A stretch of 62,536 nucleotides of DNA, from contig CAYHMW010000004.1 in NCBI GenBank assembly GCA_964357925.1, positions 1-62,536 of the forward strand. Direction: 5' to 3'. The position numbers were made by a program, and so were the translations under genes. The stretch is from an uncultured Gammaproteobacteria bacterium (GTDB taxonomy: Bacteria > Patescibacteriota > Microgenomatia > UBA8517). Each line of letters opens with the position of its first letter. Position 1 is the first letter of the stretch. Of the stretch, positions 2,995 through 58,111 are shown piece after piece. Below the pieces are notes generated by a model. It saw only the letters and a list, made by a program, of their open reading frames with translations. It was not told where the DNA came from and made no database searches.

Positions 2995-3038
2995 TCAGAT
3001 TATCACAAATTAAAAAGGAGATACACAAGCAACAATTC

Positions 3039-4775: not shown

Positions 4776-4866
4776 TGGCAGATAACTAACGTTATATACT
4801 TTTTACATAGTCGTCAAGCAGGACTTTGGTGCATGCGGCAAAGCTTGATCTATAGTAGAATTAGCA

Positions 4867-5466
4867 ATGGACAAAGAAGAGCTTGTCACTCTCTATTCTT
4901 CGGGGAAATCCATGAACGAAATATCAATCATAAAGGAATGCTCAATTAATAAAATCGTTTATTGGATGGATAAACACAACATCGCAAGAAGGTCACTTAG
5001 CGAAGCGATTTACCAAAAATCAAACCCAAGTGGGCATCCATTTAGTATAAAGAAAAACATGAATAACGCTGAACAAATACTTTACGGACTGGCTCTTGGA
5101 ATTTATTGGGGAGAAGGAAACAAAGCAGATAAATATCAAGTGCGAGTTACCAACACTGATCCAAAGATGATTTTGATATTCAGGGCGTTTTTACTAAATA
5201 TCTGTGGAGTAAAGCCAGACAAGATTTCATATAGCATAGTATCATTTCACGATCTAGATGAATTGAAGATTAGAAGGTACTGGAGCAAACAACTCAAGAT
5301 ATCCGAAGAAAAATTTGGTAAAATCGTCAAGATTCCGTCGCAAAGCAAAGGGACATACAAAAAGAAGTCAAAAAAAGGTGTTGCAAGCATCACTGTGTCG
5401 AACACTAAGTTTAAAGAGTGGATTCTGAACGAAATAGATTCAACACACAACTTTTTGCCCAAGTAG
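4867..5466 (+). CDS. HTH plus LAGLIDADG-like homing-endonuclease-type protein (putative)
   Basis: N-terminal HTH-like segment (SGKSMNEISIIKECSINKIVYWM). LAGLIDADG-like motif ILYGLALGIYWGEGNK. The stop codon overlaps the first 10 nt of tRNA-Thr. Confidence 0.45.
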   Translation: MDKEELVTLYSSGKSMNEISIIKECSINKIVYWMDKHNIARRSLSEAIYQKSNPSGHPFSIKKNMNNAEQILYGLALGIYWGEGNKADKYQVRVTNTDPKMILIFRAFLLNICGVKPDKISYSIVSFHDLDELKIRRYWSKQLKISEEKFGKIVKIPSQSKGTYKKKSKKGVASITVSNTKFKEWILNEIDSTHNFLPK

Positions 5467-9161: not shown

Positions 9162-9188
9162 GGGCCGCCACAGAGCGGCCCATTTTTA
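9162..9188 (+). terminator. intrinsic terminator
   Basis: Stem GGGCCGC/GCGGCCC, loop CACAGA, followed by a T run. Confidence 0.75.
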
Positions 9189-9254: not shown

Positions 9255-9307
9255 AGGCCCGTAGTTTATCCTCGCCGTTCGCGAACGGCGGGATGAAATG
9301 GCATAAT
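9255..9307 (+). pseudogene. decayed partial copy of the tRNA-Trp 5' end (acceptor strand plus D arm), itself interrupted by a GC hairpin
   Basis: AGGCCCGTAGTT (9255-9266) is identical to 9568-9579 of the intact tRNA-Trp. After a 30-nt insert containing the hairpin CGCCGTT-CGCG-AACGGCG, AATGGCA.AAT again matches the tRNA D loop. Confidence 0.6.
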
Positions 9308-9312
9308 CAAAC

Positions 9313-9558
9313 ATGTATTACGTTTATGTGTTGAGAGATGTCAACAGTAAGATATATATCGGCTATTCAGCAGACTTAAAAAAACGTATTAACCATCATA
9401 AAAGCGGCAGAGTCAAATCTACAAAGACAATGCTTGGAATACAACTCTTTTATTATGAGGCCTACATAAACAGGAGAATGGCCACAGAAAGAGAGAGAAA
9501 ACTTAAGACATTTGGCTCAAGCTACCAAGGATTAATGAAACGAATTGGATTGAAATAA
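9313..9558 (+). CDS. GIY-YIG nuclease family protein (small, YhbQ-like)
   Basis: MYYVYVLRDVNSKIYIGYSADLKKRINHHKSG... matches the GIY-(x)-YIG motif and carries the conserved downstream R/E positions. Confidence 0.8.
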   Translation: MYYVYVLRDVNSKIYIGYSADLKKRINHHKSGRVKSTKTMLGIQLFYYEAYINRRMATERERKLKTFGSSYQGLMKRIGLK

Positions 9559-9567
9559 ACCAACTTT

Positions 9568-9638
9568 AGGCCCGTAGTTCAATGGCAGAATAGAGGTCTC
9601 CAAAACCTTTGACGGGGGTTCGAATCCCTCCGGGCCTG
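9568..9638 (+). tRNA. tRNA-Trp(CCA)
   Basis: Hand fold. Acceptor AGGCCCG/CGGGCCT. Anticodon arm GAGGT-CTCCAAA-ACCTT. T loop TTCGAAT. Confidence 0.9.
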
Positions 9639-9848
9639 CAAATTTAATCAAACTTTCTCCACTCTAATTTCTCTAAGGTGAATTCAAATACCGGCTTTTC
9701 TTCTATTTTTCTTTTTCTTCTTCTGACATACTCTATCTATGAAGATCATTGCCACAATATATATAATATTAGTCTTGATAAGCTTCAAAAAACTCCTGAT
9801 ACTCTTGCTCAAAAAATATAAAAACTTTTAAAAATTACAAATCCTTCT

Positions 9849-24791: not shown

Positions 24792-24816
24792 TGTTCTACT
24801 TCCAACCAAAAAAAGT

Positions 24817-24832
24817 GGGCCCCTCGGGGCCC
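24817..24832. terminator. GC hairpin between convergent units; the T run lies on the minus-strand side
   Basis: GGGCCC-CTCG-GGGCCC, preceded on the plus strand by AAAAAAA. This reads as hairpin plus T run on the minus strand. Confidence 0.5.
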
Positions 24833-25158
24833 GCTGTATCGGTAGATACATCTAATTTACAACCGTTTCTACGACCTTAACCTCGCTAATATCCAAGGTA
24901 CGACAAAGTTCCTCAAGGTCCCTCCGACGCCCAAGCAAGTTTGAATAAGCAACAAACCCACTCGGAACCAACAAATCGTTGACTTCGGTAAATCCACTTG
25001 GAATTTCTCTACTTCGCTCCAAATCAATTGGAACGACAAGAAGCCAAAGCGATAGCCCTTAAACACTCCTCTCTCTAAGACCAAATTATGATACTAGATA
25101 CTACAAATATCTCCTAACATAAATTGGGGCAGGCCTCAGCCTACCCCAATACGCTACG

Positions 25159-26433: not shown

Positions 26434-26922
26434 CTAACCTCCAAAGCCCAACACGAACTCGATCATTTCGGTCAGATGATTCTGAAAAACGCTGATGACA
26501 CTGACATCATCGTCTGCACCAGCCGCTTTCAGAACATTATCAACCAACCGATTAGCAAAGGCTGCCTCGTCATGTTGCTGATAAAGATCAACAATCGCAA
26601 CCACAACGGCTAGCCGTGCCCGGCTGTCATTATCTTTGGCAAGAAAAAACTCGGCAGCCTTGCCAAATACTTCCCGCACAAACTCGCGCCGTGGCGCGAG
26701 GCGCACGCCGGGCTTACCCGGGATGTTATCGAATTCCCGGATCATGCCCATTCCTTCAAGCCGAGCAACGACCACATTATTTAAGTCCATAAGTAAGTTG
26801 CTGGCTAATGTGTGCAACCACACCTCAGGACTTGTATGCTTCGAGTCCGCGACATTCGCTTTGGCGAATTCATAAACTCGTCCGACACATTCTTTTTCTT
26901 GGACACTCAATTGTCGTGGCAT
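26434..26922 (-). CDS. hypothetical protein
   Basis: ORF track, with a terminator downstream. Confidence 0.5.
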   Translation of the reverse strand: MPRQLSVQEKECVGRVYEFAKANVADSKHTSPEVWLHTLASNLLMDLNNVVVARLEGMGMIREFDNIPGKPGVRLAPRREFVREVFGKAAEFFLAKDNDSRARLAVVVAIVDLYQQHDEAAFANRLVDNVLKAAGADDDVSVISVFQNHLTEMIEFVLGFGG

Positions 26923-37699: not shown

Positions 37700-37721
37700 T
37701 TTTGTACCCCAGGAAGGAATC

Positions 37722-37763
37722 CCTGCCCGCCATTGGCTACGCCGCAGGCGTTGGCAGGCGGGG
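37722..37763 (+). repeat. GC-rich hairpin element, copy beside tRNA-Arg
   Basis: CCTGCCCGCCAT...GCAGGCGGGG. Outer stem CCCGCC/GGCGGG, inner stem ACGCC-GCA-GGCGT. Both termini match 39637..39679. Confidence 0.7.
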
Positions 37764-37777
37764 AACCTGAACTCTTG

Positions 37778-37849
37778 TGCTCCAACCAGGAATCGAACCT
37801 GGATCTAGCCCTTAGGAGGGGCTTGTTCTGTCCATTGAACTACTGGAGC
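37778..37849 (-). tRNA. tRNA-Arg(CCT)
   Basis: Hand fold of the reverse complement. Acceptor GCTCCAG/TTGGAGC. Anticodon arm AGCCC-CTCCTAA-GGGCT. T arm CCAGG-TTCGATT-CCTGG. Confidence 0.9.
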
Positions 37850-37923
37850 GGACAATCCCTATTATACCAGCCAATTTTTAAGCCACAAAAAAGGCTGGTT
37901 AAGATAACCAGCCAACGAACAAA

Positions 37924-38187
37924 TCACTCTGGGCGCGTAATAACCTTAAAACTCGTACCCTCTATCACAAATGTGTGTGGCCACGAAGTTGGCTCAGTTG
38001 TCATTTCATGCGCCACCTGATAGCCAACGAGTTGAACAAAAGGTTCAAACGCTTTCCATCTACTTTCCCCGACCAACTCAGACTGGATTCGACCGAGCTC
38101 GTCCATATATTGCCCATTCGCATGGGACACAAGTCTCAAGGTGAAAAGCAAGTTCCGATCATAGAACACCTCAGCAATTACACCCAT
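37924..38187 (-). CDS. hypothetical protein
   Basis: ORF track only. Confidence 0.35.
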   Translation of the reverse strand: MGVIAEVFYDRNLLFTLRLVSHANGQYMDELGRIQSELVGESRWKAFEPFVQLVGYQVAHEMTTEPTSWPHTFVIEGTSFKVITRPE

Positions 38188-38287
38188 TTTCCCTCCCTAA
38201 CACGATAACGCTCTAACTATATTCTCCAGGCTGCAAGCCCTAAAAAGGCCAGCCACAAGGCTGGCCAAAGGACAAGAAACCGACTCT

Positions 38288-38521
38288 CTACCGCTCCTCC
38301 GCAACGTAAATACTGAGTACACCCTTCTTGAGTTCGAAGGGCACCTCTCGATGAGCCACTATCTCCTCGCTCACATATCGAGCGACTCTTCGAGCTGCTA
38401 TGTGCAATCCCGGATCTGTTGCCATCAGATCAAGAGAATATTCCCCTTGATCGTCAAAAACAACAATGAATCCGAACCCGCCCAAACCTCCTTCAACGCG
38501 AGTCAAAACCTTCAACTTCAT
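38288..38521 (-). CDS. hypothetical protein
   Basis: ORF track only. Confidence 0.4.
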   Translation of the reverse strand: MKLKVLTRVEGGLGGFGFIVVFDDQGEYSLDLMATDPGLHIAARRVARYVSEEIVAHREVPFELKKGVLSIYVAEER

Positions 38522-38590
38522 ATACCCTCCTTAAAATTGGGCTATGTCTTCTTTGATTCTACATTAGCACCCCATAGTAGTCAACCACTA

Positions 38591-39373
38591 CTACTTTAAC
38601 TCGACCACTACACTAATCTCTCCCTTAAGAACCTTCATTTCGCAAAGTTCGCTCATAACCTCACCCACTTGCCCTCTATAATGAGTCTCATATAGCTTTG
38701 TCATTTCCCTCCCAACGAGCACTCGCACTTCCCCAAAAACCTCTCTAACCATCTCCAAGTTTTTAATTACCCTATGTGGGGAATCAAAATATACAAAAGG
38801 ATAATTTAATTTCCGCAAATTTTGTAACTGCTTCAAAGCCTTTCTTTTTGGAAAAAAACCAATGAATATATATCGTGACACATCAAACCCACACACACTA
38901 AGCACCGCACTCACCGCGCTCACACCCGGTATGGGAATGATTTTAATTTGATCTCCAGCAACACTGTTACGCGACGTAGGCATATCAGCAGCTAAACGAC
39001 TGGCTGCCCCGCCACCGGCGGGGCCCTCGAAGGAGTGAAGACCTGATATGCCGAGAGGAGCGCTGTTATTGTACAAAAAATCAATTAACTCATTCCCTGG
39101 ATCACTTATTCCTGGCGTCCCAGCATCCGTAATAAGTGCCAAATCCTGTCCCTGTAGAAGCATGTTAAGTACCTCGTATTTGAGGGCCTCATTACTATGT
39201 TGATGATAAGATCTGACCGACGTTTTTATATCAAAATGTGTCAGCAATTTTTTAGCACTCCTCGTATCTTCTGCCAAAATTAAATCCACATTGCCCAAGA
39301 TTTGAACTGCACGAGAAGTCATATCCGAGAGATTTCCAATTGGTGTAGCAACGATGTAGAGGCTTCCTAACAT
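38591..39373 (-). CDS. rsmI: 16S rRNA (cytidine1402-2'-O)-methyltransferase RsmI, carrying an internal insertion of about 35 aa
   Basis: LYIVATPIGNL.D...RA...L..VDLILAEDTR, DAGTPGISDPG, IPGVSA and GFFPKRK motifs. Confidence 0.85.
   Translation of the reverse strand: MLGSLYIVATPIGNLSDMTSRAVQILGNVDLILAEDTRSAKKLLTHFDIKTSVRSYHQHSNEALKYEVLNMLLQGQDLALITDAGTPGISDPGNELIDFLYNNSAPLGISGLHSFEGPAGGGAASRLAADMPTSRNSVAGDQIKIIPIPGVSAVSAVLSVCGFDVSRYIFIGFFPKRKALKQLQNLRKLNYPFVYFDSPHRVIKNLEMVREVFGEVRVLVGREMTKLYETHYRGQVGEVMSELCEMKVLKGEISVVVELK
38979..39052. repeat. 74-nt GC-rich palindromic insertion, in frame inside rsmI
   Basis: 10-bp terminal inverted repeat GGCATATCAG (38979-88) / CTGATATGCC (39043-52). Central hairpin CCCCGCC-ACC-GGCGGGG (39007-39023). 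Confidence 0.65.
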
Positions 39374-39614
39374 ATGTCTACACTATTATATATCACCACA
39401 CACACCTACTCCACAATCCAAGGGCCAGGAACCCATCTCAGCAACGAACAATATAATTATAGGTATAGAAATATTGTACACAGAAATTGTGGATAACTTG
39501 TTACTCAATCCTTACTATAAGATATCAATAATAACTATGTATTAATTTACACGCATGAAAACATATGAGGAGTATTTGTATACATAGGAAGTTTGGGCTA
39601 TATTAAGGAATATT

Positions 39615-39758
39615 CGGGGAGTAGCTCAGGGGTAGACCTGCCCGCCATCAGCTGTCGCCTCAGGCGACTGCAGGCGGGGTGCGCAGCGGGGACTAGTGTA
39701 TCGGCAACACGCCATGTTCGGGACATGGAGACACCGAGTTCAATTCTCGGGTCCCCGA
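39615..39758 (+). tRNA. tRNA-Pro(CGG) interrupted by a GC-rich insertion of about 70 nt in the D-arm region; possibly a pseudogene
   Basis: 5' part CGGGGAG-TA-GCTC-AGGGGTA-GA. 3' part CCATG-TTCGGGA-CATGG, AGACA, CCGAG-TTCAATT-CTCGG, GTCCCCG-A. Acceptor pairs 1-72 through 6-67 are Watson-Crick. Confidence 0.65.
39637..39679 (+). repeat. GC-rich hairpin element, copy inside tRNA-Pro
   Basis: CCTGCCCGCCAT...GCAGGCGGGG. Outer stem CCCGCC/GGCGGG, inner stem GTCGCC-TCA-GGCGAC. Confidence 0.7.
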
Positions 39759-39767
39759 CAAAAATCA

Positions 39768-39872
39768 TTATCTTAACCCAGATTTTTTGACGTAGTCTCA
39801 AAAACTGGAGTTATCTTAACCCAGATTTTTTGACGTAGTCTCAAAAACTGGAGTTATCTTAACCCAGATTTT
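39768..39872. repeat. 43-bp tandem direct repeat: two full units plus a 19-nt partial unit formed by the 3' end of atpC
   Basis: TTATCTTAACCCAGATTTTTTGACGTAGTCTCAAAAACTGGAG at 39768-39810 and 39811-39853. TTATCTTAACCCAGATTTT again at 39854-39872, which is the last codons plus stop of atpC. Confidence 0.9.
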
Positions 39873-40117
39873 ATACCTAAATAAACCGATATCTTATTAT
39901 TAAAGACCTTCATTACTCCATTTTCTGCCGCGACTTCCAGTGCATTACCATCTGGTAGTAAAATCTTAAGTGGAGCATCAAGAAGAGTTATAAAGTTTGT
40001 GTGCATATCGACAACATCAAAAGTCCCTTTCTGGTTCCGGGATGAAACAGCTGCCACTCTCCCCTGGTAAACAATCCCATTTCTGTTAATGACCTTAAGG
40101 TAAAGTGCCTCCGCCAT
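39854..40117 (-). CDS. atpC: F-type ATP synthase epsilon subunit, short form (beta-sandwich only)
   Basis: Position after atpD. The N-terminal epsilon-like beta domain is present, but at 87 aa there is no C-terminal helical hairpin. Confidence 0.7.
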   Translation of the reverse strand: MAEALYLKVINRNGIVYQGRVAAVSSRNQKGTFDVVDMHTNFITLLDAPLKILLPDGNALEVAAENGVMKVFNNKISVYLGIKSGLR

Positions 40118-44996: not shown

Positions 44997-46700
44997 TCAC
45001 TGTAAACTAGCTTCCAACAAATTTCTACCTTTCATCTCAGGAGGTATCGGAAGTTCTAATAATCTCAATATAGTTGGGGCGACATCGTACAATGCTCCGC
45101 GGGGAAGGACGCGCGGGTTTCCTTCCCAGGCTTTATTAATCGCAATAAACGGCACAGGATTATTTGTATGGTCTGTATTAACGTCACCCGTTGTAGTAGT
45201 AAAGAAGAACGAAGTCTCAGCATAAGTAAGCATTGATTCAGCATTGCCGTGGTCAGCTGTAATTAATACTGTCCCATGGTGCTTGAGTACAGCTTCCACA
45301 ACCATTCCAATCGCACGGTCCAGGGCTTCAATTGCAACAATAGCCGCCGGAACACTCCCGCTGTGGGCTACCATGTCAGCATTTGCAAAGTTCGCGACCA
45401 AAAAACTGTACTTCCCTTTCGATAACGCATTTTTTATCTCATCGGTAACGCCAAAGACAGACATCTCAGGCCGCTTATCATATGTAGCAACTTTAGGGGA
45501 CGCTACAATTTTATATTCCTCTCCAGCAAAAGGACCTTCTCGAAGCCCATCAAAATAATACGTAACAAATCTTTCCTTCTCACTTTCAGACAAATGAATC
45601 TGAAGAAGCGAGTGCTCTGATATCACCTGCGCAAGTGGTTGCGCAACCACCTCCGGAGGATAAACTATTGCCCCAACAGGAAGACCCTTCTGGTATTCAG
45701 TCATCGTTACAAAAAAAACATTCTTCAGTCTTTTTTGGCGCTTAAACGTACTACCAAAGTCCACCTTCCCCTCCTTGTGAGCCGTATTAGGCTCAATTGG
45801 CTCATGTCCAAAATCGTACGATCGAAGTGTTTCAAAATCAGGTAAAACAAAGGCCATCGTCAGCTGTCTCGGTCTATCAATTCTAAAGTTAAAAAATATT
45901 ACAGCATCATTATCATCAATCGTTGCAACAGGCCGGCCATCTTCCGAAATCACAGTCGGCTCTATAAATTCATCGGTCTGCCCGATCGCGTACGAAGTAG
46001 TCACTGCTTCAAATGCGGAGTTAACTATCCTACCCTGTCCTAGAACCAATGCATTATAGGCACGCTCCGTCCTCTCCCACCTTCTATCACGATCCATTGC
46101 CCAATACCTCCCAGTAACACTTGCAATCCTCCCGGCACGATTAATGCGAAGCATCTCCTCCAATTCCTTAATCACATTCTCAGCATCATTCGGAGGCGAG
46201 TCCCTCCCATCAGTAAAGGCATGAATATAAAAGTTTGAAAAGTCAGAAGACTTACAAAACTGAATGATCGACTTCAAGTGGGGCAAGCTCGAGTGGACAT
46301 TGCCGTTCCCGACAAGCCCCATGATATGGAGCTTCGATCCATTCTGATTGGCATAACTTATAGCCTGTGCAATTGCTCGATTATCAAAAAAGCTCCCGTC
46401 GGCAATTGCCGAATTTATGCGCTTCAAATCTTGATTCATCGTGCGGCCAGCCCCAAGTGTCAGATGCCCAACCTCAGTATTCCCCACCTCATTCGCTGGC
46501 AAGCCCACTGATTCCCCCGAAGCAATAAGATCACAATGAGGGTAGGTTCGATAATACGAATCCATATTTGGTGTACGCGCATTAGAAATCGCATTCCCCT
46601 TATTCGGCGGCGCCAATCCCCACCCATCCAAGACCAGAAGCATTACAGGCCTCAAGCCATTTGAGCCAGAATTGTTCCTATTAAATAGATCAAAAAACAT
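44997..46700 (-). CDS. gpmI: 2,3-bisphosphoglycerate-independent phosphoglycerate mutase
   Basis: VLDGWG, NTEVGHLTLGAGR, ADHGNAE and other iPGM motifs. Confidence 0.9.
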   Translation of the reverse strand: MFFDLFNRNNSGSNGLRPVMLLVLDGWGLAPPNKGNAISNARTPNMDSYYRTYPHCDLIASGESVGLPANEVGNTEVGHLTLGAGRTMNQDLKRINSAIADGSFFDNRAIAQAISYANQNGSKLHIMGLVGNGNVHSSLPHLKSIIQFCKSSDFSNFYIHAFTDGRDSPPNDAENVIKELEEMLRINRAGRIASVTGRYWAMDRDRRWERTERAYNALVLGQGRIVNSAFEAVTTSYAIGQTDEFIEPTVISEDGRPVATIDDNDAVIFFNFRIDRPRQLTMAFVLPDFETLRSYDFGHEPIEPNTAHKEGKVDFGSTFKRQKRLKNVFFVTMTEYQKGLPVGAIVYPPEVVAQPLAQVISEHSLLQIHLSESEKERFVTYYFDGLREGPFAGEEYKIVASPKVATYDKRPEMSVFGVTDEIKNALSKGKYSFLVANFANADMVAHSGSVPAAIVAIEALDRAIGMVVEAVLKHHGTVLITADHGNAESMLTYAETSFFFTTTTGDVNTDHTNNPVPFIAINKAWEGNPRVLPRGALYDVAPTILRLLELPIPPEMKGRNLLEASLQ

Positions 46701-48013: not shown

Positions 48014-51000
48014 ATGACATATCTACCCAACAATACCCAAAACCAACCCTTAAGTATCCATGAAGCATCTGAATTTCTTGGCGTCTCAACTAAAACTCTC
48101 CGAAGGTGGGAAGCAAAAAAAGTTCTCGTCCCTGTTCGTACCGCTGGCGGCCACAGACGCTACAGTTTTAAAAAGCTTGTAGAATTCAAAAACAAAGGCG
48201 CCAAAAGTAAATCAAATACAACCTACGATTCATCAACAATCTTCCCCCCAAGCTTCGACGCACTCCCAACAGTTTCCTACTTCACAAAACCCCTGCCGGA
48301 AACCCAAACGTCGATTGAGCCTGTATTGCTTCCGCATTTAAAACCCCTCGAACCAAGCGAAGTACCAGGGGCAACTGATCTACTCAAAAATGCAATTTCC
48401 GCAACAATATTAACCTCACTCGTAGCCTTAGTCTTGGCTGGATTTTCTATTCTATTTACCGCAGTCAAAATCAACCTACCAAGCATCGGGGATGCGCAGC
48501 CCCGAGGCGATCGGAGTGAGCTTTTCGGGGCCAACCCCAACCAAGAGAACACAGTCATCCCGCACGAAGATGCGGGATCCAGAATTGAAAACGATGTATT
48601 GGCTGCCAGTTCCATTCTCCAAGATGTAAATCTCAACATTAACGTCCCCACAAACATCGATAATAGCTTTCGCGTCAGCGGCGCTTCAACCTTCGATGAC
48701 GACATTGCCTTAAACGGCACAAACGTCACATCTACCCAAGATGAAGTGAATCTCTTCATTGGCACTAGTCCAGGGACGATCAACATCGGCGGTGGAGCTT
48801 CAACCACAAGCATCGGTGGAATTGCAAATCTGGGAGGCAATTCTCTCATCTCCCCTGGCGATCTACTGATTGACCCGGGCGGAGGCGGCGTGTCCATAGG
48901 CACGGGAACTGCAAGTACCATCAATCTGGCAGGAGACGATTTTTTCGTTTCTGGGGACTTCGAAGTTGACGGCTCCCTTGTCGTCGGCAGCGATTCAATT
49001 ACTGACCTCACAGGTTCCGGTCTTCAAGTAAGCTCAGGTGCTCTCCAAGCAACCCTAGGTACCTCAATCACAACCGGCGAAATAGAAAACGACACAATCC
49101 TGGAAGTCGATTTGGATATCACAAACGATCCGACAGACAACTACATTCTAACCTACGATTCGGCAACAGCCGGCTTTACTTGGGTAGCATCAAGTGCCGC
49201 AGTAATCACAATCGAAAACAACGACACAGGGGTAGGCACAGATGTCACGACAATCGACTTCTCAACAGACTTCACAGTTGCAGCTTCCCCAGCAAGTGAA
49301 ACAAACGTTTCCATCGCAGACGATATATTAAGCTTTACAGAATTCAGTGACACCCTGACAGCAGAAGACGGTACAATCCTCGACCTCTCGTCAATCAATC
49401 ATTCAACAACAGCTATTGAAGGTATCAAACTACCGCAAAGTGCTCTCTCAAGCGGCCCGAGTTCTGGTGATGGCTTCTTGGCATTCGACACTGATGATAA
49501 TCAAGTCAAAGTTTGGTACTCTGGTGCCTGGAGCTCAATTGCCGGAGCCTCAACCACCCTCCAACAGTCCTACGCCAATGATGCCGATGGCTCAGACGCA
49601 ATAATCGCCCTTACAGCTGACGACGATTCCATAATCGTAAGAAACCCCAGCTCAAGTGGCACAGACTCTGGATACTTAATGAGCCTTGATCAGCTAAATA
49701 CAGGCAGCGTTGATGCTCTTCAAGTCAGCAATTCCGGCACCGGCGACAGTGTCCAGATAACAAATTCGTCAACTGGTTTAATAATGAACCTCGCGGCTTC
49801 CGGTTCAGGAACTACAGCAGATGGCATATTAATATCTCAAACAGGATCGGGAACGATCACTGACGCAATTGATCTAAGCGATGAAACGATCACAAACGCA
49901 CTAAACATCGGTGCGAATATAATCATAGGAACAACCGCTTCAATCGACTTCACCAACTTTGATGTTGCAACAACAGGTGCAATTACAACAGGTGCAGCAG
50001 GTCAAGATGGCCAACTCGTAATCTACAATGACCTGGCCACTGATAGAAGCATAACGATTAACCCAAGTTCCTCTCAGGGAGCAGACATCACCTATACACT
50101 CCCCCCAGATGATGGTGCAGCTGATAATTATGTGTTAACAACAGATGGCAGTGGAGTTCTCAATTGGGAAGCAGTTACGGGAGCAGGCGCTGTTGATGAG
50201 ACAGGAACAAACACATCCGGCCAAATAGCGTACTTTACAGACGACAACACTCTCACCTCTTCATCGAATTGGGTATTTGTAGACAGTCAAACAACAGGCA
50301 ACACACTCTCAGTAGCTGCAACGACTCTAACCACAGGTAACCTGCTTGATGGAACCGCAACCTATGTCGACGCAACAGGAGGGACAGATAGTGCAATTGA
50401 TATCAATCTAACTAATAATCCAGTAACCAACGCAAACACGCTCCGTGGCTTAGACATTGGTTTCACTGATGCAGGAAGCCTTGCAAACACAATTTATGGG
50501 GTATACATAGATGCAACAACAGCAAACTCTAGTGACACTACATATGCAGGAGTGCTTCTTGGCGGCAACGTAGGAATCAATGATGCCACTCCAGATGCCA
50601 GACTTGAGATTTTAGCTACAACTGAACAACTAAGACTCACCTACACCGACGGTACTGTTGATGCAAGATTTACCGTAGACAGTAGCGGCAATCTCAATAT
50701 AGACGTTACAGGAACCAAGACCATCATAACCGACGATCTTCAGGTAACAGGCAACGACATTCTAAGCTCAAGCGCCACGGCAGCCCTAACATTATCAGGA
50801 ACAGATGTCACAGTAGCAGGTGATTTGACAGTTTCAGGCGGAGACATCATCGGCATCGCAACCACCAATCTCCTAAATACTGCCTCCACAACCATAAACT
50901 TCGCCTCTGCAGCCACCACTCTAAACATGGCAGACGCCGCAATCACAGGGACAATCGATATTGGAGGCGTCACAAGCGATGGCACAAGCACTATAAATAT

Positions 51001-54000
51001 CGCAACAAACGGTGCTGCTAACGCAGATGTTATAACAATTGGTAATTCAAATGCAGGAACAACACTTGCCTTGACAGGTGGAGATGACTGGAATATATCA
51101 ACAACTGGCATACTAACTCTTTCTGCATCAGCTGCACAAACCAGTGCAATAGTGGCCACAGATACCGACTACACAAACTTCGCAGATATCGGCGACAACG
51201 ATATAACAGGGACCACGTTCGATATCATTGGAACAACAGGAACAATTAACTTAACATACTTCGACGTATCGGCAACCGGTGCGATCACAACAGGAGGGGC
51301 CACCCAAGATGGCCAATTTATAATCTACAATGACCTTGCGACAGACCGCACAATCACCATAAACCCAAGCTCCTCCCAGTCTCTAGATATCACCTACACC
51401 CTTCCACCAGATGATGGCGGAGCTGACAATTATGTGTTGACTACAGATAGTACGGGAGTCCTAAACTGGGAAGCTATAACAGGAGCAGGTGGAGTTGGCG
51501 GCTCTGGCACTCAAAACGCGCTAGCCAAATTCACAGTCACTGGCAACACTATTGGAGACTCAAGTATCACCGACGATGGCACTACAGTAACTCTCTCAAC
51601 TGACGTCTCCTTAAGTTTAGGAGCGGGCGAAGAAGTCTCCCTTTCAAACACCGGTGCAAACTCTGATCAACTATCACTCTCCGTATCAGGAGTAACTACA
51701 ACTGGGATTGACGCATTATCACTTTCCTTCACCCAGGCAGACGACATCGACGCAACCGACGACAACGCAGCCGCACGAATCGCACTTACATCCTCCTCCA
51801 CTCAAGCGGATCTCCTATATGGAATCGACTTGGCAAATATCACGGCAGGAGCAGCGACAGAGACCGCTCTAAGAATTGGCTCTGGCTTTGATAATCTATT
51901 CGAACTTGAAGGCTCAACAAATGACGGCATAGAACTATTTGTTCAACTAACAGATCCAACTAGTACCGACAAAACAATAACATTCCCTAACGACACAGGA
52001 ACAGTCTGTCTCAGTTCAGGCAACTGTGCAGGTGGATCAGGAGGCAGTAAATGGACCGATAGTGGTGTAATCACCTACTTCACAGCCTACACAACAGACG
52101 ATGTCGCAATTGGTGATACCACAAGCGCCTCTGAATTCTACTTTGATATTTTGAGCACAGATAGCGGCCAACTATCGATGAACCCAAGCTCAGTTGGAAC
52201 AAAGATCGACATCAATCTTGAAACTGAATGGACTAGCGGGACCCTAATCAACGCAGACTTCGGAAGTAGCACCACACAAGGGGCTGACCTAGACATAACC
52301 GGCTTGGTGCTTAATCTTAATACTAATCTAACCGCAAACGCTGATGCGGACGTGACGGGAATAAATGTCCAAACCCCAGTCTTAACCTCCACAGAAGCCG
52401 TAACTACAAATTACTCTGTATACAATAATTCCGCCTCAGGGGCTCTTACTCAAAACACAGCTGCAGGAACAATTAATTGGCGAGGGCTAAATCTCACTAT
52501 GCCCAATATTACAGCGACGACTGGCACCATTACATCTGATGGCGTCAGAGTAGCAAACGGGACAATCACCACAGGGGGCACACAATCTCTCTTCCATGCC
52601 ATAACAACTGGCGTCGGAGCAGGAACACTTTACGGCCTAAATATTGACGGCATCACAGCAAGTGGTGGCACAGAACAAGCAATCGCTATCGGCGCAGGCT
52701 GGGACACTGACATAAACGCAACAACTTCTCTCGAAATTGGCATCGGTGGAGCCAACGAGTTAACACTAACTGCAACAGCTCTAGCTCCATCGACTGATTC
52801 AGGGCAAGATCTCGGCACCTCAAGTCTTCAATTTGCAGATCTCTATCTTGATGGTGGAAATGTGAATATCGATAACGCAACAGACATTGATATAGATGAC
52901 AATGTATCAGGTGCTCTTTCTATATCACAAGGTACCAATGACTATATAAATATAACAACAACAGACACGACTACTACATTTCTAATTGACATGCCCGTTG
53001 CCGGATCAAGCTCAACCACGGCAAACCTATTCACCTCAAATCTCACAAAAACAATAAATATAGGAACAGGGACAGACGGCGACACAATTAATCTAGGGGA
53101 TGGAACAGGCACAAACGCAATTGATATTGGCGGGGTGGGAAACTCTGGAACAGACACTATAAACATCTCAACCGAAGCTACAGCGTCCGATGTCATTACT
53201 ATTGGCAACTCCCACGCCTCTACAACCCTGGCTCTCACCGGTGGTGATGATTGGAGCATAAGTACGGCTGGGCTCGGCATATTCAGCCAGGTTGGTATAG
53301 GTACCACTGCTCCTGATGCAGCTCTTGAGATTAACCATGCAACAGGAGATAGCTTGAGGTTGACATATAACGATGCAAATGGCTCTGCTGCTGATTACAC
53401 AGACTTCTCTCTAAGTTCAACCGGTGCACTCACCTTGACTGGATCTGCAGCAACACTGGCAGCCAGCGCAACAGCAGAGAAAACATTCTTGACCCTAACC
53501 CCAGGAACAATAACCTTAACCGCTCCAACAGCCGTGACATCTTTGATGGAAACCTCAGTGATAACAGGGGCAACAATTGCAGCAAATGCAGCAACCACAG
53601 TGGATAAGGCAACAACACTGTCTCTGGTAGCACCAATTGACAGTACTAATGCAACACTAACTGCAGACTCAGCTCTCCGAATATTAAATGTAACCTCTGG
53701 TGCAGGTACCCTCACAACTCAGTATGGATTGTTTGTAGAGGACCTAACAGCAGGAGCAAGCGACTACGGCATCTACATTGCAGGCGCTGATACCTACTCT
53801 CTATATACAGCAGCCGGGTCAGTGAGCCATCTCTTTGAAGCAGCAGAAGGCCTTGTCCTCGATTCAGAAGCAACTGATTCAACCGGCACAGCTGGAGTAA
53901 TTGATCTTGATCTTGATGCCACAAGCTCACAGCAAGCCATTAACCTCGATATTGAAACCATAGCTGATGCAGGAGTAGATACTTTGATTGGTTTGGATAT

Positions 54001-57000
54001 ATTAGCAACGCAGACCTCCACAGACGATGATGTCGTCTACGGGATGAGAGTCCAAAACCTCGGAGGGACTCCTGATGCTGGTAACGAATATGGCATCTAC
54101 CAAGCAGGCATAAGCTGGGACTATGGACTATATGTAGAAGATGCAGCACTTTTCAACACAACTGCCGTAATCAACGGAACGTATCTTGGACTTGACTACG
54201 ATGCAGATGCAGGAAATGTAATATCGGTTGGAACCGGGCCCGAACAATCAACAGGGTCGCTATTCTGGGGCAATGACTTACTTTGCGATCCGGCACTAAC
54301 TAACTGCGGCTGGGCAACTTCAGCCAGCTCTCCTTTTACCCAATCAGGAGCTGATCCGAATGAGATTATTGATAAAAGCGATCTTACAGCCAGACTGAGA
54401 CTCCAATATGGTGATGCAGGAGATATCCAACTTGAAATTGACTCAACAAGTAACACAATTGTCCCCACAGCAGATGCGGTCTCGATTGATTTAAGCTCAG
54501 GAGCCACAAACACAGGAATCATAACAGCAGATGTTGATGGACTCTACTTGGTCATGGAAGCAGGTAATATAGTTGCAGATGGAGCAATCTCAGGGGTCCA
54601 CATTAACTTTGATCCAATCACAGGTGGTGGTGCAGGAGATCTGTTCTACGGATTAAACATTGATGGCATCACAGCAACAGGTGCAACTGAGGCAGCCATC
54701 AATATTGGCTCAGGCTGGGATACAGGCATCGCCATTTCATCAGCCATCGCTGGTGAAGCACTTGATCTAACGAGTGTTGCGGGCATCAGGACAACCGCCC
54801 TCATTGATCTCAACGAAAACAATACAACAGGAACTGTTCCAACCATCCAATGGGATAGTGCCGCAGATACCACAAGGGGTGGATTCATGGACATCAACCT
54901 TGCAGGTGCTCTTGCTACTGAAAACTTAATTGACCTAACAACCTCAGCCGCCTGGACCAGTAACCTACTCGATATCAACCTAGGAGCTGGCATCTCAACT
55001 GGCAATGTCATGGATATAACCTTTGGAACTGCAGCCCACACAGGTAATGCCATTGATCTAAACATGGGAACCAATGTGGCAGGCCAAGCCATCGATATTA
55101 ATTTGACAGGTGCAAGGACAGATGACGGCATCAACATTGATGATGATTCAACAGGCAATACTCCCATTCTTGACATGAACATTAGTGGAGTGCGAACGGG
55201 CAATGCCATCGATATTACATATGCAACTGCCGCCGCCACAGAGAATGCCATTGATCTAAATATGGGCACCAATGTGGCAGGAGATGCCATAAACATCAGT
55301 GCCGCCGCTACAACCGGAGATTCAATTGACATTACTCCCGGTGCAGCCAGGACTTCAGGTGCTGCTCTCAAGATTACAGACGGTTCCCTAGCAGCTGCAG
55401 TCACCGACGCCCTCATCCAACTCGACATCACAGGAACATCAGACACCAACAGCCTTGATTTTGACATCTCAGGAGGCAGCGCAGTCTCCGGTAACCAGCT
55501 TGACATCACCTACTCAAGTGCAGCCCACACAGGTAATGCCATTGACCTCAACATGGGCACCAATGTGGCAGGAAACGCTCTTGCCATCGCTACCGCCGGT
55601 ACCACGACTGGCCGCGCTATTGAAATCATTTCTGATGGTACTATTGTGGACTCACTCATCGATGTGGATATGAATTCGGGTGATTGGCAAGGCAACATTT
55701 TGGAAGTCACCACCGGCGGCTCTGCTTCTGACGGTGACGTGTTTAACATTACTTTGGAAGCTCTCGATGTTGCTGTACAAAATATGGTGGTAACAAACGC
55801 CGCCGCTACAACTGCAGCAGGATGGCTCATGGATGTCGATACTTCAGCTGCCTGGACTGGCATTGCCATGGATATTGATATTGCTGGTGCCGTCATCTCA
55901 ACTGGTAACTTCCTGGATGTCACCTACTCAAGTGGAGCTCACACAGGTAATGCATTCGACTTAAACATGGGTACAAACGTGGCAGGTAATGCAATTGACA
56001 TAGCAACTGCAGCCACAACTGGTAATGCAATCGACATAACAACAACCGGGGTCTTCACCAACGAACTCATCGATATCAATGTAGGAGCCAATGCTGCCAC
56101 AGGCGATGTAATTAATATAGATATGGGCTCAACGGCCACTGGTGCCCAAGCCTTTGTTCTAACTAACACCTCAGCCTCAACAGTCAACCAAGTTGACTTA
56201 ACAGCCAACTCACTCGTTAGTGGCAATCTAATTGACCTAAACTCCACCTCAACAGGGCTAACAACAGGAAGCTTCATATCATCGTCATTCACAGGTAATT
56301 CAACCTTCACTGGAGACCTAAACTACTTTGAATGGGCACCAACCACCTCGACAACTGCCAGTGGCGATATCTTCCAAATAAACATCGGTACAAGTGGCAC
56401 CACAACAGGCAAGCTTTTCCGTGTCAGCGATACAGGCAGTGACTTATTCGCCATAAGCGAGACAACTATCACAAGCGCTCTTCCTCACGAATTCACAGCC
56501 GCAGGAGACCTAAGCGTCGCCTACGATATCGCCTTTACAAATCAGACAGCCAGCTACATCAAATCAAACGGCCCAGTAACAATCGAGGCAGGCGAGTCTT
56601 TTGAGAGCAATAACCTTACACTCAAAACCTACAACTCAGGCGATATCGTCTTTGACGTTCCAGCAACCGGAACAGCAATTGTACAGGGAGCATTCTCAGT
56701 TGATTCTCAACAAACTTTAACTGCGAATAGTACCACTCCCTCAGTTGCTGCCGGTTCGCACTTTATAACTGCAAATACCTCTGATCCTACTCTTATATCT
56801 AATTTTACAAGTGGAACCACAGGTCAAATGATTTTCGTTGAAGCGGGGGATGCAGTAACAGATTTTGATTGTACTGCTTCTAGTCTGAACTGCGGCAATG
56901 CAGATATTACCGCAGTTACTGCTGGAGACACATTCAATTTTATATACGATGGAACCAATTGGAACATGATTAGCTGGATAGATAACGGCACCAGCTATGC

Positions 57001-58111
57001 CACCGGCGGCGCAGATTTAGCAGAGCTATTCGTTAGCTACATTCCTCTGGTCCCAGGCGAAATTGTGAAAGTCGATCCAGACAACGACAAACAAATTGTC
57101 CCAACTAACTCAAGCTATGACCACTCAGCTGTAGGGGTTGTATCAACAGCTCCCGGAATCACTCTAGGCACGGAGACCGAAGGGAAAACAAACTATGCCA
57201 TAGCCCTCGCAGGCCGCGTCCCCGCCAGGATCGCCGAAAACTCAGAACCAATCAGAAAAGGCGACTTTATTGCTACATCAAATGAAGTTGGACGTGCAAT
57301 GAAGGCAACTTCCCAGGGCAATGTAATCGGTACCGCTATGGAAGACTGGACCCCGGGATCCGGCCAAGACAAGATCGTCATGTTCATAAACAACAGTTAC
57401 GCCAATCCAAACCCAGCCCCCGCAGATTCGGGCAGTGTCATCCCGGACCCGGATCCGGGATCTGAAACATTGGTATCAGACGTTGAGTCCCTTGAAAGTC
57501 GTGTCACCCTCCTCGAAGACCAACTCGACATATTCTTGAGCACAACCCTCAACACACCAGTCGCCACTGATTCGGGAACAGCAACATCATCCGGAAATAT
57601 TGTCATCCCGCACGAAGATGCGGGATCTGGAAGCTTCGAGAAGCTGACCACGACTGACCTGTCTGTCTCAGGAGATGCAGTCCTTGGGGATGTCACAATC
57701 ACAGGTAATCTCAACATCGGTACGCTATCAGTTGACGGTTTTGGCAATTCTATTGATGCAATAGGAACATTGGCCATCCAACCACTGGCCCTAGGCAACA
57801 TCGAGTTCTTGGGAGGCCTCATAACCTTTGATACAGATGGCAACATAGTGGCCAAAACTATTGAGGTAGAAAAGATCTCAATCAAAGGCGATTCAGCCGG
57901 CATTGGTGCAATTCCAGAAGGTGAAAACGAAGCCTACATCGCCACAGATCAAGTCACAACAGACTCACTAATATTAGTAACACCAACAAGCGGCACCCGC
58001 TATCCATTGGTCGTAGCCACCAAAGAGCCAGGCCTCGGCTTCACCGTTCAAATCCCAGTGGCACCACTCTCAGACATTAATTTTGATTGGTTAATTGTGG
58101 ACAAACGATAG
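48014..58111 (+). CDS. giant (3365 aa) surface protein: N-terminal MerR/excisionase-like HTH, one TM, a long repetitive T/S/G/A/D/N-rich ectodomain and a C-terminal globular region
   Basis: Uninterrupted ORF. HTH LSIHEASEFLGVSTKTLRRWEAKKVLVPVRTAGGHRRY (aa 13-50). TM AISATILTSLVALVLAGFSILFTAV (aa about 127-151). Multiple long internal repeats. Confidence 0.85.
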   Translation: MTYLPNNTQNQPLSIHEASEFLGVSTKTLRRWEAKKVLVPVRTAGGHRRYSFKKLVEFKNKGAKSKSNTTYDSSTIFPPSFDALPTVSYFTKPLPETQTSIEPVLLPHLKPLEPSEVPGATDLLKNAISATILTSLVALVLAGFSILFTAVKINLPSIGDAQPRGDRSELFGANPNQENTVIPHEDAGSRIENDVLAASSILQDVNLNINVPTNIDNSFRVSGASTFDDDIALNGTNVTSTQDEVNLFIGTSPGTINIGGGASTTSIGGIANLGGNSLISPGDLLIDPGGGGVSIGTGTASTINLAGDDFFVSGDFEVDGSLVVGSDSITDLTGSGLQVSSGALQATLGTSITTGEIENDTILEVDLDITNDPTDNYILTYDSATAGFTWVASSAAVITIENNDTGVGTDVTTIDFSTDFTVAASPASETNVSIADDILSFTEFSDTLTAEDGTILDLSSINHSTTAIEGIKLPQSALSSGPSSGDGFLAFDTDDNQVKVWYSGAWSSIAGASTTLQQSYANDADGSDAIIALTADDDSIIVRNPSSSGTDSGYLMSLDQLNTGSVDALQVSNSGTGDSVQITNSSTGLIMNLAASGSGTTADGILISQTGSGTITDAIDLSDETITNALNIGANIIIGTTASIDFTNFDVATTGAITTGAAGQDGQLVIYNDLATDRSITINPSSSQGADITYTLPPDDGAADNYVLTTDGSGVLNWEAVTGAGAVDETGTNTSGQIAYFTDDNTLTSSSNWVFVDSQTTGNTLSVAATTLTTGNLLDGTATYVDATGGTDSAIDINLTNNPVTNANTLRGLDIGFTDAGSLANTIYGVYIDATTANSSDTTYAGVLLGGNVGINDATPDARLEILATTEQLRLTYTDGTVDARFTVDSSGNLNIDVTGTKTIITDDLQVTGNDILSSSATAALTLSGTDVTVAGDLTVSGGDIIGIATTNLLNTASTTINFASAATTLNMADAAITGTIDIGGVTSDGTSTINIATNGAANADVITIGNSNAGTTLALTGGDDWNISTTGILTLSASAAQTSAIVATDTDYTNFADIGDNDITGTTFDIIGTTGTINLTYFDVSATGAITTGGATQDGQFIIYNDLATDRTITINPSSSQSLDITYTLPPDDGGADNYVLTTDSTGVLNWEAITGAGGVGGSGTQNALAKFTVTGNTIGDSSITDDGTTVTLSTDVSLSLGAGEEVSLSNTGANSDQLSLSVSGVTTTGIDALSLSFTQADDIDATDDNAAARIALTSSSTQADLLYGIDLANITAGAATETALRIGSGFDNLFELEGSTNDGIELFVQLTDPTSTDKTITFPNDTGTVCLSSGNCAGGSGGSKWTDSGVITYFTAYTTDDVAIGDTTSASEFYFDILSTDSGQLSMNPSSVGTKIDINLETEWTSGTLINADFGSSTTQGADLDITGLVLNLNTNLTANADADVTGINVQTPVLTSTEAVTTNYSVYNNSASGALTQNTAAGTINWRGLNLTMPNITATTGTITSDGVRVANGTITTGGTQSLFHAITTGVGAGTLYGLNIDGITASGGTEQAIAIGAGWDTDINATTSLEIGIGGANELTLTATALAPSTDSGQDLGTSSLQFADLYLDGGNVNIDNATDIDIDDNVSGALSISQGTNDYINITTTDTTTTFLIDMPVAGSSSTTANLFTSNLTKTINIGTGTDGDTINLGDGTGTNAIDIGGVGNSGTDTINISTEATASDVITIGNSHASTTLALTGGDDWSISTAGLGIFSQVGIGTTAPDAALEINHATGDSLRLTYNDANGSAADYTDFSLSSTGALTLTGSAATLAASATAEKTFLTLTPGTITLTAPTAVTSLMETSVITGATIAANAATTVDKATTLSLVAPIDSTNATLTADSALRILNVTSGAGTLTTQYGLFVEDLTAGASDYGIYIAGADTYSLYTAAGSVSHLFEAAEGLVLDSEATDSTGTAGVIDLDLDATSSQQAINLDIETIADAGVDTLIGLDILATQTSTDDDVVYGMRVQNLGGTPDAGNEYGIYQAGISWDYGLYVEDAALFNTTAVINGTYLGLDYDADAGNVISVGTGPEQSTGSLFWGNDLLCDPALTNCGWATSASSPFTQSGADPNEIIDKSDLTARLRLQYGDAGDIQLEIDSTSNTIVPTADAVSIDLSSGATNTGIITADVDGLYLVMEAGNIVADGAISGVHINFDPITGGGAGDLFYGLNIDGITATGATEAAINIGSGWDTGIAISSAIAGEALDLTSVAGIRTTALIDLNENNTTGTVPTIQWDSAADTTRGGFMDINLAGALATENLIDLTTSAAWTSNLLDINLGAGISTGNVMDITFGTAAHTGNAIDLNMGTNVAGQAIDINLTGARTDDGINIDDDSTGNTPILDMNISGVRTGNAIDITYATAAATENAIDLNMGTNVAGDAINISAAATTGDSIDITPGAARTSGAALKITDGSLAAAVTDALIQLDITGTSDTNSLDFDISGGSAVSGNQLDITYSSAAHTGNAIDLNMGTNVAGNALAIATAGTTTGRAIEIISDGTIVDSLIDVDMNSGDWQGNILEVTTGGSASDGDVFNITLEALDVAVQNMVVTNAAATTAAGWLMDVDTSAAWTGIAMDIDIAGAVISTGNFLDVTYSSGAHTGNAFDLNMGTNVAGNAIDIATAATTGNAIDITTTGVFTNELIDINVGANAATGDVINIDMGSTATGAQAFVLTNTSASTVNQVDLTANSLVSGNLIDLNSTSTGLTTGSFISSSFTGNSTFTGDLNYFEWAPTTSTTASGDIFQINIGTSGTTTGKLFRVSDTGSDLFAISETTITSALPHEFTAAGDLSVAYDIAFTNQTASYIKSNGPVTIEAGESFESNNLTLKTYNSGDIVFDVPATGTAIVQGAFSVDSQQTLTANSTTPSVAAGSHFITANTSDPTLISNFTSGTTGQMIFVEAGDAVTDFDCTASSLNCGNADITAVTAGDTFNFIYDGTNWNMISWIDNGTSYATGGADLAELFVSYIPLVPGEIVKVDPDNDKQIVPTNSSYDHSAVGVVSTAPGITLGTETEGKTNYAIALAGRVPARIAENSEPIRKGDFIATSNEVGRAMKATSQGNVIGTAMEDWTPGSGQDKIVMFINNSYANPNPAPADSGSVIPDPDPGSETLVSDVESLESRVTLLEDQLDIFLSTTLNTPVATDSGTATSSGNIVIPHEDAGSGSFEKLTTTDLSVSGDAVLGDVTITGNLNIGTLSVDGFGNSIDAIGTLAIQPLALGNIEFLGGLITFDTDGNIVAKTIEVEKISIKGDSAGIGAIPEGENEAYIATDQVTTDSLILVTPTSGTRYPLVVATKEPGLGFTVQIPVAPLSDINFDWLIVDKR
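48554..48584 (+). repeat. 31-nt palindromic element, copy B (in frame, encodes VIPHEDAGS)
   Basis: GTCATCCCGCACGAAGATGCGGGATCCAGAA, with the hairpin at 48557-48578. Confidence 0.85.
57602..57632 (+). repeat. 31-nt palindromic element, copy C (in frame, encodes VIPHEDAGS)
   Basis: GTCATCCCGCACGAAGATGCGGGATCTGGAA, with the hairpin at 57605-57626. Confidence 0.85.

Follow-up and report, generated by a model that had tools for sequence, protein, structure and literature searches.

GC-rich hairpins occur at several tRNA sequences of contig CAYHMW010000004.1 (GenBank assembly GCA_964357925.1; GTDB lineage Patescibacteriota, Microgenomatia, UBA8517), and the question they raise is whether they belong to the tRNA genes, act as RNA structures, arose by chance or are genetic elements in their own right. 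The stretch analysed here, called the window throughout, comprises positions 1 to 62,536 of the contig and has a GC content of 41-48%. A first-pass annotation of this DNA had placed four hairpins in a single family, two of them long and found at tRNA-Arg and tRNA-Pro, one in a tRNA-Trp fragment and one inside rsmI; all four sequences are present where it put them, and the common termini and compensatory inner stems that it described for the two long ones were confirmed in sequence and in fold. Grouping all four in a single family is unsupported: two of the hairpins are strict members of one family, and the other two fall into a looser class of GC-rich mini-hairpins. We think it probable that the strict members are miniature non-coding quasi-palindromic insertion elements, selfish in character, which survive where they are tolerated and notably in dispensable tRNA remnants. 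The two copies are:

37722..37763, + strand, 42 nucleotides (nt): hairpin element copy 1, within a dead 3' fragment of tRNA-Arg, at the T-loop (covariance model R1, sequence and fold)
39637..39679, + strand, 43 nt: hairpin element copy 2, between an old tRNA-Pro 5' fragment and a complete tRNA-Pro (model R1 and sequence)

Both copies have the termini CCTGCCCGCCAT...GCAGGCGGGG, which in each of them pair as CCUGCC/GGCGGG and GCC(A)/(U)GGC around a C x A mismatch, and their inner stems differ in a compensatory manner, ACGCC/GGCGT as against GTCGCC/GGCGAC. Folded as a single hairpin, copy 1 reaches -30.6 kcal/mol (z = -2.9) and copy 2 about -25 kcal/mol. The pattern CCCGCC-N(3-33)-GGCGGG occurs three times in the window, where shuffles lead one to expect 0.02 occurrences. 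Model R1 was built from 57 copies of other genomes plus the two window copies, so that the scores of the latter are partly circular; it gives copy 1 62.6 bits (E = 1.1e-12) on the + strand and 20 bits on the - strand, and copy 2 60.3 bits (E = 3.9e-12). No Rfam family for the hairpins was found, either by a gathering-threshold search of the whole window or by a permissive search of 39500-39900.

The first-pass annotation had named the absence of further copies genome-wide as the result that would overturn its family, and such an absence was not what emerged. An exact-pattern scan of species-representative genomes for CCTGCCCGCCAT-N(12-36)-GCAGGCGGGG matched at least 120 stretches, and the matches listed by that scan are the basis of later counts, including those of 130 matches and of 129 evaluated ones. 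The element, of about 36-45 nt, belongs to the chromosomes of numerous bacterial lineages, the majority of them uncultivated: by record title the listed matches come from many Patescibacteria lineages, Desulfobacteraceae, Bacteroidota, Ignavibacteriota, Elusimicrobia and several metagenome-assembled genomes (MAGs) labelled Proteobacteria. The consensus is CCTGCCCGCCAT, a variable inner hairpin (usually ..CGCC-TCA-GGCG..) and GGCAGGCGGGG. A single-hairpin fold is found in about 104 of the 129 evaluated matches, whose loci have a median GC of 44%, and CAGGCG, an interior motif that the search left free, is more than 90% conserved whilst other interior positions vary. Copy 2 is one base off copies in a Gottesmanbacteria MAG (L028) and in L085, and nested and tandem copies occur at L032, L051, L063 and L211.

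The structural constraint that had been proposed for the repeat is borne out by the folding of 59 interiors, which average -23.5 kcal/mol compared with -19.5 kcal/mol for shuffled interiors and beat the shuffle in 97% of copies. RNAalifold on a MAFFT alignment counted no covariation, since the search itself had fixed the outer stem and the inner stems do not align in register, and the support for structure therefore rests on these per-sequence shuffles. An origin in viruses, plasmids or phages was rejected, with three matches in 2.9 million viral contigs and no match to the hairpin element in PLSDB plasmids or INPHARED phages.

Stems that are short and rich in GC have little sequence complexity, and a minority of the listed matches in GC-rich genomes (L017, L026, L043 and L077) are ordinary coding sequence, which lends some colour to the idea of chance hairpins with no common origin. 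This idea has almost no probability: three occurrences in the window against 0.02 expected, E values of about 1e-12 for both copies, near-identical 43-mers in unrelated MAGs and the conserved interior motif all contradict it, and it was rejected on the window count, the number of matched stretches, the conserved interior and the R1 scores.

Remnants of tRNA genes beside the two copies

The surroundings of both copies are made up of tRNA sequence in more than one state:

39615..39636, + strand: remnant of an older tRNA-Pro allele, comprising the acceptor 5' strand, D stem and D loop (CGGGGAGTAGCTCAGGGGTAGA)
39687..39758/9, + strand: complete tRNA-Pro(CGG) (ARAGORN; Rfam tRNA 54 bits; perfect acceptor stem)
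37777..37849, - strand: complete tRNA-Arg(CCT) (ARAGORN; Rfam 66.2 bits)
37764..37776, - strand: 5' part of an old tRNA-Arg remnant (AAGAGTTCAGGTT), immediately following the complete gene
37700..37721, - strand: 3' part of the same remnant, comprising the 3' half of the T loop and the 3' strands of the T stem and acceptor (GATTCCTTCCTGGGGTACAAAA)

Copy 2 had been thought to lie inside tRNA-Pro. It lies instead 7 nt upstream of the complete tRNA-Pro(CGG) and follows a 22-nt fragment of another allele, so that the order at the locus is a remnant of allele A, the hairpin, 7 nt and the full allele B. The fragment CGGGGAGTAGCTCAGGGGTAGA equals the first 22 nt of the uninterrupted tRNA-Pro in the closest relative, L002 (RsmI 71% identical), and a conserved upstream region precedes the tRNA-Pro sequence alike in the window and in L002. 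The complete gene is of a different allele type, with a D arm of GTGT/ACAC and a T loop of TTCAATT, and the same type occurs at the same locus in L205. Copy 2 would be transcribed within a tRNA-Pro leader of 72 nt, which RNase P would remove. This tRNA-Pro (39687-39758) was missed when the whole window was passed through Rfam at the gathering threshold, and its 54 bits when the region is searched alone mark the omission as a filter effect.

For copy 1 the first-pass annotation gave only a distance, 15 nt beyond the end of tRNA-Arg, and overlooked the tRNA context: a 3' remnant of tRNA-Arg surrounds the hairpin, which interrupts its T-loop. Read along the tRNA strand, the order is tRNA-Arg, AAGAGTTCAGGTT[C], the hairpin and GATTCCTTCCTGGGGTACA, the T-loop being divided as CAGGTT[C], hairpin, GATTCCTTCCTGGGG. 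With the hairpin taken out, 19 of 20 positions align to the T arm and acceptor of the L206 tRNA-Arg (score 36; shuffles have a mean of 14.6 and a maximum of 32), and the flanks at 37700-37776 are, to judge from this alignment, the 3' remnant of another tRNA-Arg allele with its T-loop split.

Each window copy thus occupies the loop of a tRNA fragment, in one case the D arm of the old tRNA-Pro and in the other the T-loop of the old tRNA-Arg; next to each fragment is a complete gene belonging to another allele type, and relatives have both types at the same locus. The view that the hairpins interrupt working tRNA genes has accordingly to be given up for the window, where the carriers are dead partial copies next to intact genes.

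Some further observations concern the surroundings of these genes and the relative L003. A perfect DnaA box (TGTGGATAA) is found at 39488 within the motif TTGTACACAGAAATTGTGGATAACTTGTTA (39474-39503), which is kept in the rsmI/tRNA-Pro spacer of L002, L003, L205 and L206; it is probably a regulatory site rather than a replication origin, because the cumulative GC skew has no turn there. The gap between tRNA-Pro and atpC (39768-39872) holds 2.4 copies of a perfect 43-nt tandem repeat (TTATCTTAACCCAGATTTTTTGACGTAGTCTCAAAAACTGGAG), and L002 has no repeat at the same place. The tRNA-Pro is lacking at the atpC/rsmI locus of L003, and an open reading frame (ORF) of 144 codons is inserted in L003 after the PEGA-domain gene (4140-4745) with the last ~10 codons of that gene (PLNLYWLGLK*) duplicated beyond it, which is another replacement-with-remnant event in the lineage.

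Insertion sites in other genomes

A comparison of filled and empty sites is provided by a clustered regularly interspaced short palindromic repeat (CRISPR) array in a Lentimicrobium MAG (L116, reverse strand 1354-3764), which has 29 full repeats of 46 nt and spacers of 30 nt. Twenty-three repeats are empty, reading TTTCAAA-G-ATACAA, and six are filled, reading TTTCAAA-[hairpin]-G-ATACAA, always at one fixed position and with no duplication of the flanks. The six filled repeats are among the last twelve, interspersed with empty ones, and one further repeat has a truncated copy.

Residence in frame, which the first-pass annotation had noted in rsmI, is a property of the family in protein genes. 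In the LepA of L083 the element encodes exactly the 13 residues that are absent from solved EF4 structures in the PDB, the GatB of L055 is longer by a segment where the element lies, and IleRS, a glycosyltransferase and others also bear it, in differing frames and orientations of translation. A matched length of 3n+1, equivalent to 3n as inserted, is found in 14 of 16 ORF-embedded copies and in 43 of 84 intergenic ones.

An intact tRNA lies no more than 300 nt away from 23 of the 130 listed copies, and in most of the 23 the flanks align to the neighbouring tRNA across the junction. The link to tRNA that had been suspected is therefore real, but it extends beyond D arms: partial copies are interrupted at the D loop (L030, L098), at the anticodon loop (L084) or at the T-loop (L022, L057, L121 and others). 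Removal of the element yields a complete tRNA for just one of the 130, at L106 in Aquimarina, where a dense array of 15 tRNA genes (3222-4896) includes an additional complete tRNA-Ser(TGA) at ~3303-3431 whose T-loop is interrupted by the element. That gene, together with loop positions that recall non-canonical archaeal tRNA introns, might lead one to regard the hairpins as intervening sequences removed from the tRNA precursor, an explanation that is exceedingly unlikely given that no such restoration occurs in the window, that the complete tRNA-Pro there stands beside its hairpin and not around it, that the carriers are truncated copies next to intact genes and that Rfam returned no group I intron or other RNA family.

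No target-site duplication beyond an ambiguous single C or G was found in the comparison of filled with empty CRISPR repeats and of tRNA copies. Flanking stems of at least 6 bp surround 7% of copies and 0.5% of controls, and because the figure is just 7% insertion into the loop of another hairpin can account for a minority only. Relative to GC skew the orientations divide 54/45 (p = 0.42), with no bias. These comparisons show that the element enters DNA precisely, without target-site duplication and in either orientation, and that it persists only at sites able to bear an additional hairpin. Redundant or dead tRNA sequence is foremost among these; the others are intergenic DNA, the loops of other stem-loops and, when the reading frame is kept, surface-tolerant portions of proteins.

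Orientation and context also bear on whether the hairpins work as RNA structures, be it as terminators, as processing signals or as stabilisers of a neighbouring tRNA or mRNA, which we consider very improbable. Thirteen copies run with the sense of the tRNA and ten against it, divergent contexts are commoner than convergent ones across the loci (14 versus 6), and copies lie inside coding sequence and CRISPR repeats, none of which suits a role in RNA; nor is there a U tract or an Rfam family match. What speaks for such a role is the stability of the folds, the position of copy 1 in the convergent gap between a PEGA-domain gene and tRNA-Arg, the leader of tRNA-Pro to which copy 2 would belong, and the transcripts of the small GIY-YIG genes described below, which would begin with a hairpin. 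An intrinsic terminator in particular was rejected, there being no T tract, and the scan that found the real terminators of the genome flagged 38247-38266, 37893-37913 and 9162-9181 and neither hairpin; as a terminator copy 2 would moreover be placed between a conserved promoter region and tRNA-Pro(CGG), upstream of its own tRNA.

On the reading that we favour, that of a selfish insertion element, the hairpins would be DNA comparable to Rickettsia palindromic elements, REP/REPIN sequences and mitochondrial GC clusters. They would be copied into exposed or single-stranded loop DNA, or spread by short-patch gene conversion between similar sequences such as tRNA arms and CRISPR repeats, and the enzyme would be supplied in trans. 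Gene conversion is plausible as a secondary route because filled CRISPR repeats are interspersed with empty ones. A bias to lengths that are multiples of three would let copies survive in gene-dense genomes.

Several points weigh against this reading. Its mobility is deduced from filled and empty sites in sequences rather than observed, model R1 detects only two strict copies in 62.5 kb, and the target motif is unclear, with a weak preference for T-R before the element and (G)A after it. Among the ORFs within 400 nt of the 130 listed copies neither an enriched protein family nor a mobilising enzyme was found: all-against-all clustering of these 669 ORFs gave only response regulators, glycosyltransferases, Mur ligases and three GIY-YIG genes, and a linked transposase was rejected on the same set. 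Conservation of a 40-nt sequence across phyla is unusual for selfish repeats and would better fit a conserved function or a recognition partner. The breadth of the family and the abundance of variants are beyond the reach of a search pattern that fixes 22 terminal bases, and many source genomes are MAGs, some of whose taxonomic labels may be wrong.

The looser hairpins of tRNA-Trp and rsmI

The third tRNA locus of interest differs from the first two in having a small nuclease gene between the old and the new tRNA:

9255..9307, + strand: old tRNA-Trp 5' fragment (AGGCCCGTAGTT..AATGGCATAAT), with a 23-nt GC hairpin in its D loop
9270-9292, + strand, 23 nt: hairpin of the tRNA-Trp fragment, TTCGCGAA-loop subfamily (fold -23 kcal/mol, z = -3.4)
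9313..9558, + strand: gene for an 81-residue GIY-YIG nuclease (Pfam PF01541, E = 4.6e-13), between the old fragment and the intact tRNA-Trp
9568..9639, + strand: complete tRNA-Trp(CCA) (tRNA scans)

Model R1 has no match at 9270-9292, and the hairpin belongs to a sister subfamily and not to the strict family. The same TTCGCGAA-loop subfamily is found in D-, anticodon or T-loops of tRNA-Trp fragments at L211, L213, L215 and L216. Homologues of the window GIY-YIG protein were fetched without regard to hairpins, and every one with enough flank adjoins tRNA-Trp, between hairpin-bearing fragments. At L213 the order is the old 5' part with a D-loop hairpin, the GIY-YIG gene, an intact tRNA-Trp and the old 3' part with a T-loop hairpin; L211 has three generations of tRNA-Trp, and the same pattern is seen at the tRNA-Tyr of L216. 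A tRNA-Thr remnant at L216 ends in ...GGTAGA followed by CCTGCCCGCC, a junction that matches those of the window tRNA-Pro, L027 and L028. The replacement of tRNA-Trp in the window came with the small GIY-YIG nuclease gene, and the left-over fragment bears the sister-subfamily hairpin; on the sequences compared, tRNA gene replacement that leaves hairpin-bearing fragments is recurrent.

Second GIY-YIG genes were also noted beside tRNA-Tyr (L211/L212, 2773-3093; L216, 441-746), where the tRNA-Tyr fragments have mini-hairpins in anticodon and T-loops (CCCGCC-AAA-GGCGGG, TCCGCC-TAAA-GGCGGA and others).

These loci suggest that hairpins might be working parts of a selfish cassette for tRNA gene replacement, composed of a small GIY-YIG gene and a replacement tRNA gene, in which they would serve as the nuclease recognition site or as plugs in the loops of the displaced tRNA halves; a plug would block re-cleavage, recombination with the new copy, or harmful tRNA-like transcripts. 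Three of the four small GIY-YIG ORFs in loci ascertained by hairpin (L032, L076 and L081) are within ~20 nt of the hairpin and directly beside canonical copies; the GIY-YIG gene adjoins tRNA-Trp or tRNA-Tyr at L211-L213 and L215-L217, with flanking tRNA fragments that have GC hairpins in D-, anticodon or T-loops; and L032 has the order given above for L213, of old 5' half with hairpin, GIY-YIG gene, intact tRNA and old 3' half with hairpin. The T4 enzyme SegB, described as a homing enzyme of the GIY-YIG type that targets a region of tRNA genes (PMC2330249), would be a precedent. We nevertheless regard such a cassette as possible but unlikely, since most canonical copies have no GIY-YIG gene nearby, copies occur also in CRISPR repeats, protein genes and unrelated intergenic DNA, and the hairpins beside GIY-YIG genes fall into several sequence subfamilies, among them the TTCGCGAA-loop type and the bare CCCGCC-NNN-GGCGGG seen at the rsmI centre. 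Both features are drawn to tRNA neighbourhoods, which confounds their co-occurrence.

A broader proposal, which we hold to be quite unlikely, would make the hairpins the cis-acting half of a transposase-free mobility system that operates across phyla. A structure-specific nuclease, for which the ~80-residue GIY-YIG protein is a candidate, would open DNA at the loops of stem-loops, those of tRNA genes and CRISPR repeats included; the hairpin copied in would disable the resident tRNA gene, and a linked replacement allele would leave the cell dependent on the incoming cassette, amounting to a selfish drive for tRNA gene replacement.

The fourth hairpin is part of a much longer palindrome:

38948..39064, - strand: in-frame insertion in rsmI, 117 nt (39 codons), a long palindrome with arms at 38979-38988 and 39043-39052
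39007-39023: centre of the rsmI insertion, a 17-nt CCCCGCC-ACC-GGCGGGG hairpin (sequence)

The insertion is absent from two orthologues (P0003 and P0004, 74% identical over aligned positions), and its length varies among the many others that have it at this position. It takes the form of a long palindrome, with compensatory changes in the arms, in the window and in L002, L205, L206 and L207. At the centre model R1 gives 11 bits (E = 1.5), which is not a significant family resemblance, the hairpin being a bare 6-bp stem that lacks the strict termini. The assignment of the rsmI and tRNA-Trp hairpins to one strict family with the two long copies is thus unsupported, and the rsmI insertion represents another in-frame palindromic element, longer than the family hairpins, different from them and with a mini-hairpin at its centre in the window. 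Objects of the same kind make up the hairpin family, of which it is not a demonstrated strict member. The best named matches of this RsmI are in Woesebacteria, Microgenomates and Patescibacteria, an identical RsmI occurs on a Hainich groundwater contig, and a metagenome scan with RsmI returned mostly distant orthologues without the insertion.

More GC-rich palindromic islands lie within long ORFs of the window, at 26672-26726, 24813-24846 and 45093-45127; model R1 detects none of them, and they may be further in-frame palindromic insertions of other subfamilies. Elsewhere in the window a single ORF of 3365 codons (48014-58111, + strand) occupies a part with higher GC and weaker GC skew.

Significance and comparison with known systems

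If confirmed, the hairpins would be among the smallest widespread insertion elements of bacteria, and no earlier family of this kind was found in the literature for the candidate phyla radiation. Published work, searched for sequence strings as well as for topics, yielded no description of the hairpin family. The elements alter conserved genes and repeats (LepA, GatB, IleRS and CRISPR repeats, with the rsmI palindrome being of the same kind), and they mark the sites of tRNA allele replacement in genomes whose tRNA genes are nearly single-copy. For annotation they matter in that hairpins mislead tRNA and gene callers, a remnant plus hairpin being taken for an interrupted tRNA, and in that hairpin-encoded peptides appear in protein databases. 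They also pose a mechanistic question, namely how a palindrome of 40 nt spreads across phyla with its sequence kept, no target duplication and no linked transposase.

Rickettsia palindromic elements (RPEs) are non-coding palindromic repeats of ~100-150 bp, AT-richer and confined to Rickettsia, whose genomes are small and gene-dense; they are found in frame inside conserved protein genes, where they are translated as extra loops, as well as in RNA genes and intergenic DNA, and we know of no transposase associated with them. The hairpin elements resemble them in lying in frame in conserved protein genes and in being missing from orthologous sequences, as seen from LepA against EF4, from the extra segment of GatB and from the rsmI palindrome. 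They differ from RPEs in being ~40 nt long and ~75% GC, in occurring across phyla and in their marked presence in tRNA loops and CRISPR repeats; the comparison is one of kind, as size and composition differ greatly, and homology is not claimed.

REP and REPIN sequences are imperfect palindromes of 20-40 nt, with conserved mismatches that give polarity, found as singlets or clusters without target duplication and mobilised by RAYT, an IS200-like Y1 transposase; REPs are extragenic and species-specific and have a GTAG or CGTC tag. The hairpin elements are likewise short, imperfect, dispersed palindromes without target duplication, whereas they have no such tag (their termini are CCTGCC / GGCGGGG) and are often intragenic, and no RAYT/Y1 transposase gene was present among the ORFs within 400 nt of the listed copies. 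Two other classes were rejected: miniature inverted-repeat transposable elements derived from DDE transposons, whose target-site duplication is lacking here, and integron attC sites, as no cassette arrays or integrase are found among the neighbours of the listed copies, which lie inside genes and tRNA fragments.

The GC clusters and hairpin repeats of mitochondria in yeast, sponges and Volvox are described as short GC-rich palindromes in AT-richer genomes, which nest in one another and invade genes and spacers and for which these accounts give no known enzyme (PMC4478555, PMC2800124, PMC2670323). They are organellar and unrelated in sequence, whereas the hairpin family resides in bacterial chromosomes and is conserved across phyla. 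SegB of T4, according to the account cited above, is a free-standing homing endonuclease of the tRNA gene region (PMC2330249), and the window gene at 9313-9558 is similar in standing beside a tRNA, with a tRNA region that was apparently inherited along with it. The proteins here differ in being predicted nucleases of ~80 residues, catalytic domain only, that leave duplicated tRNA fragments, and the comparison concerns the tRNA-Trp locus and not the canonical hairpins. Among palindromic repeats the canonical hairpins are unusual in their small size, their conservation across phyla, their residence in tRNA loops and CRISPR repeats and their tie to the replacement of tRNA alleles.

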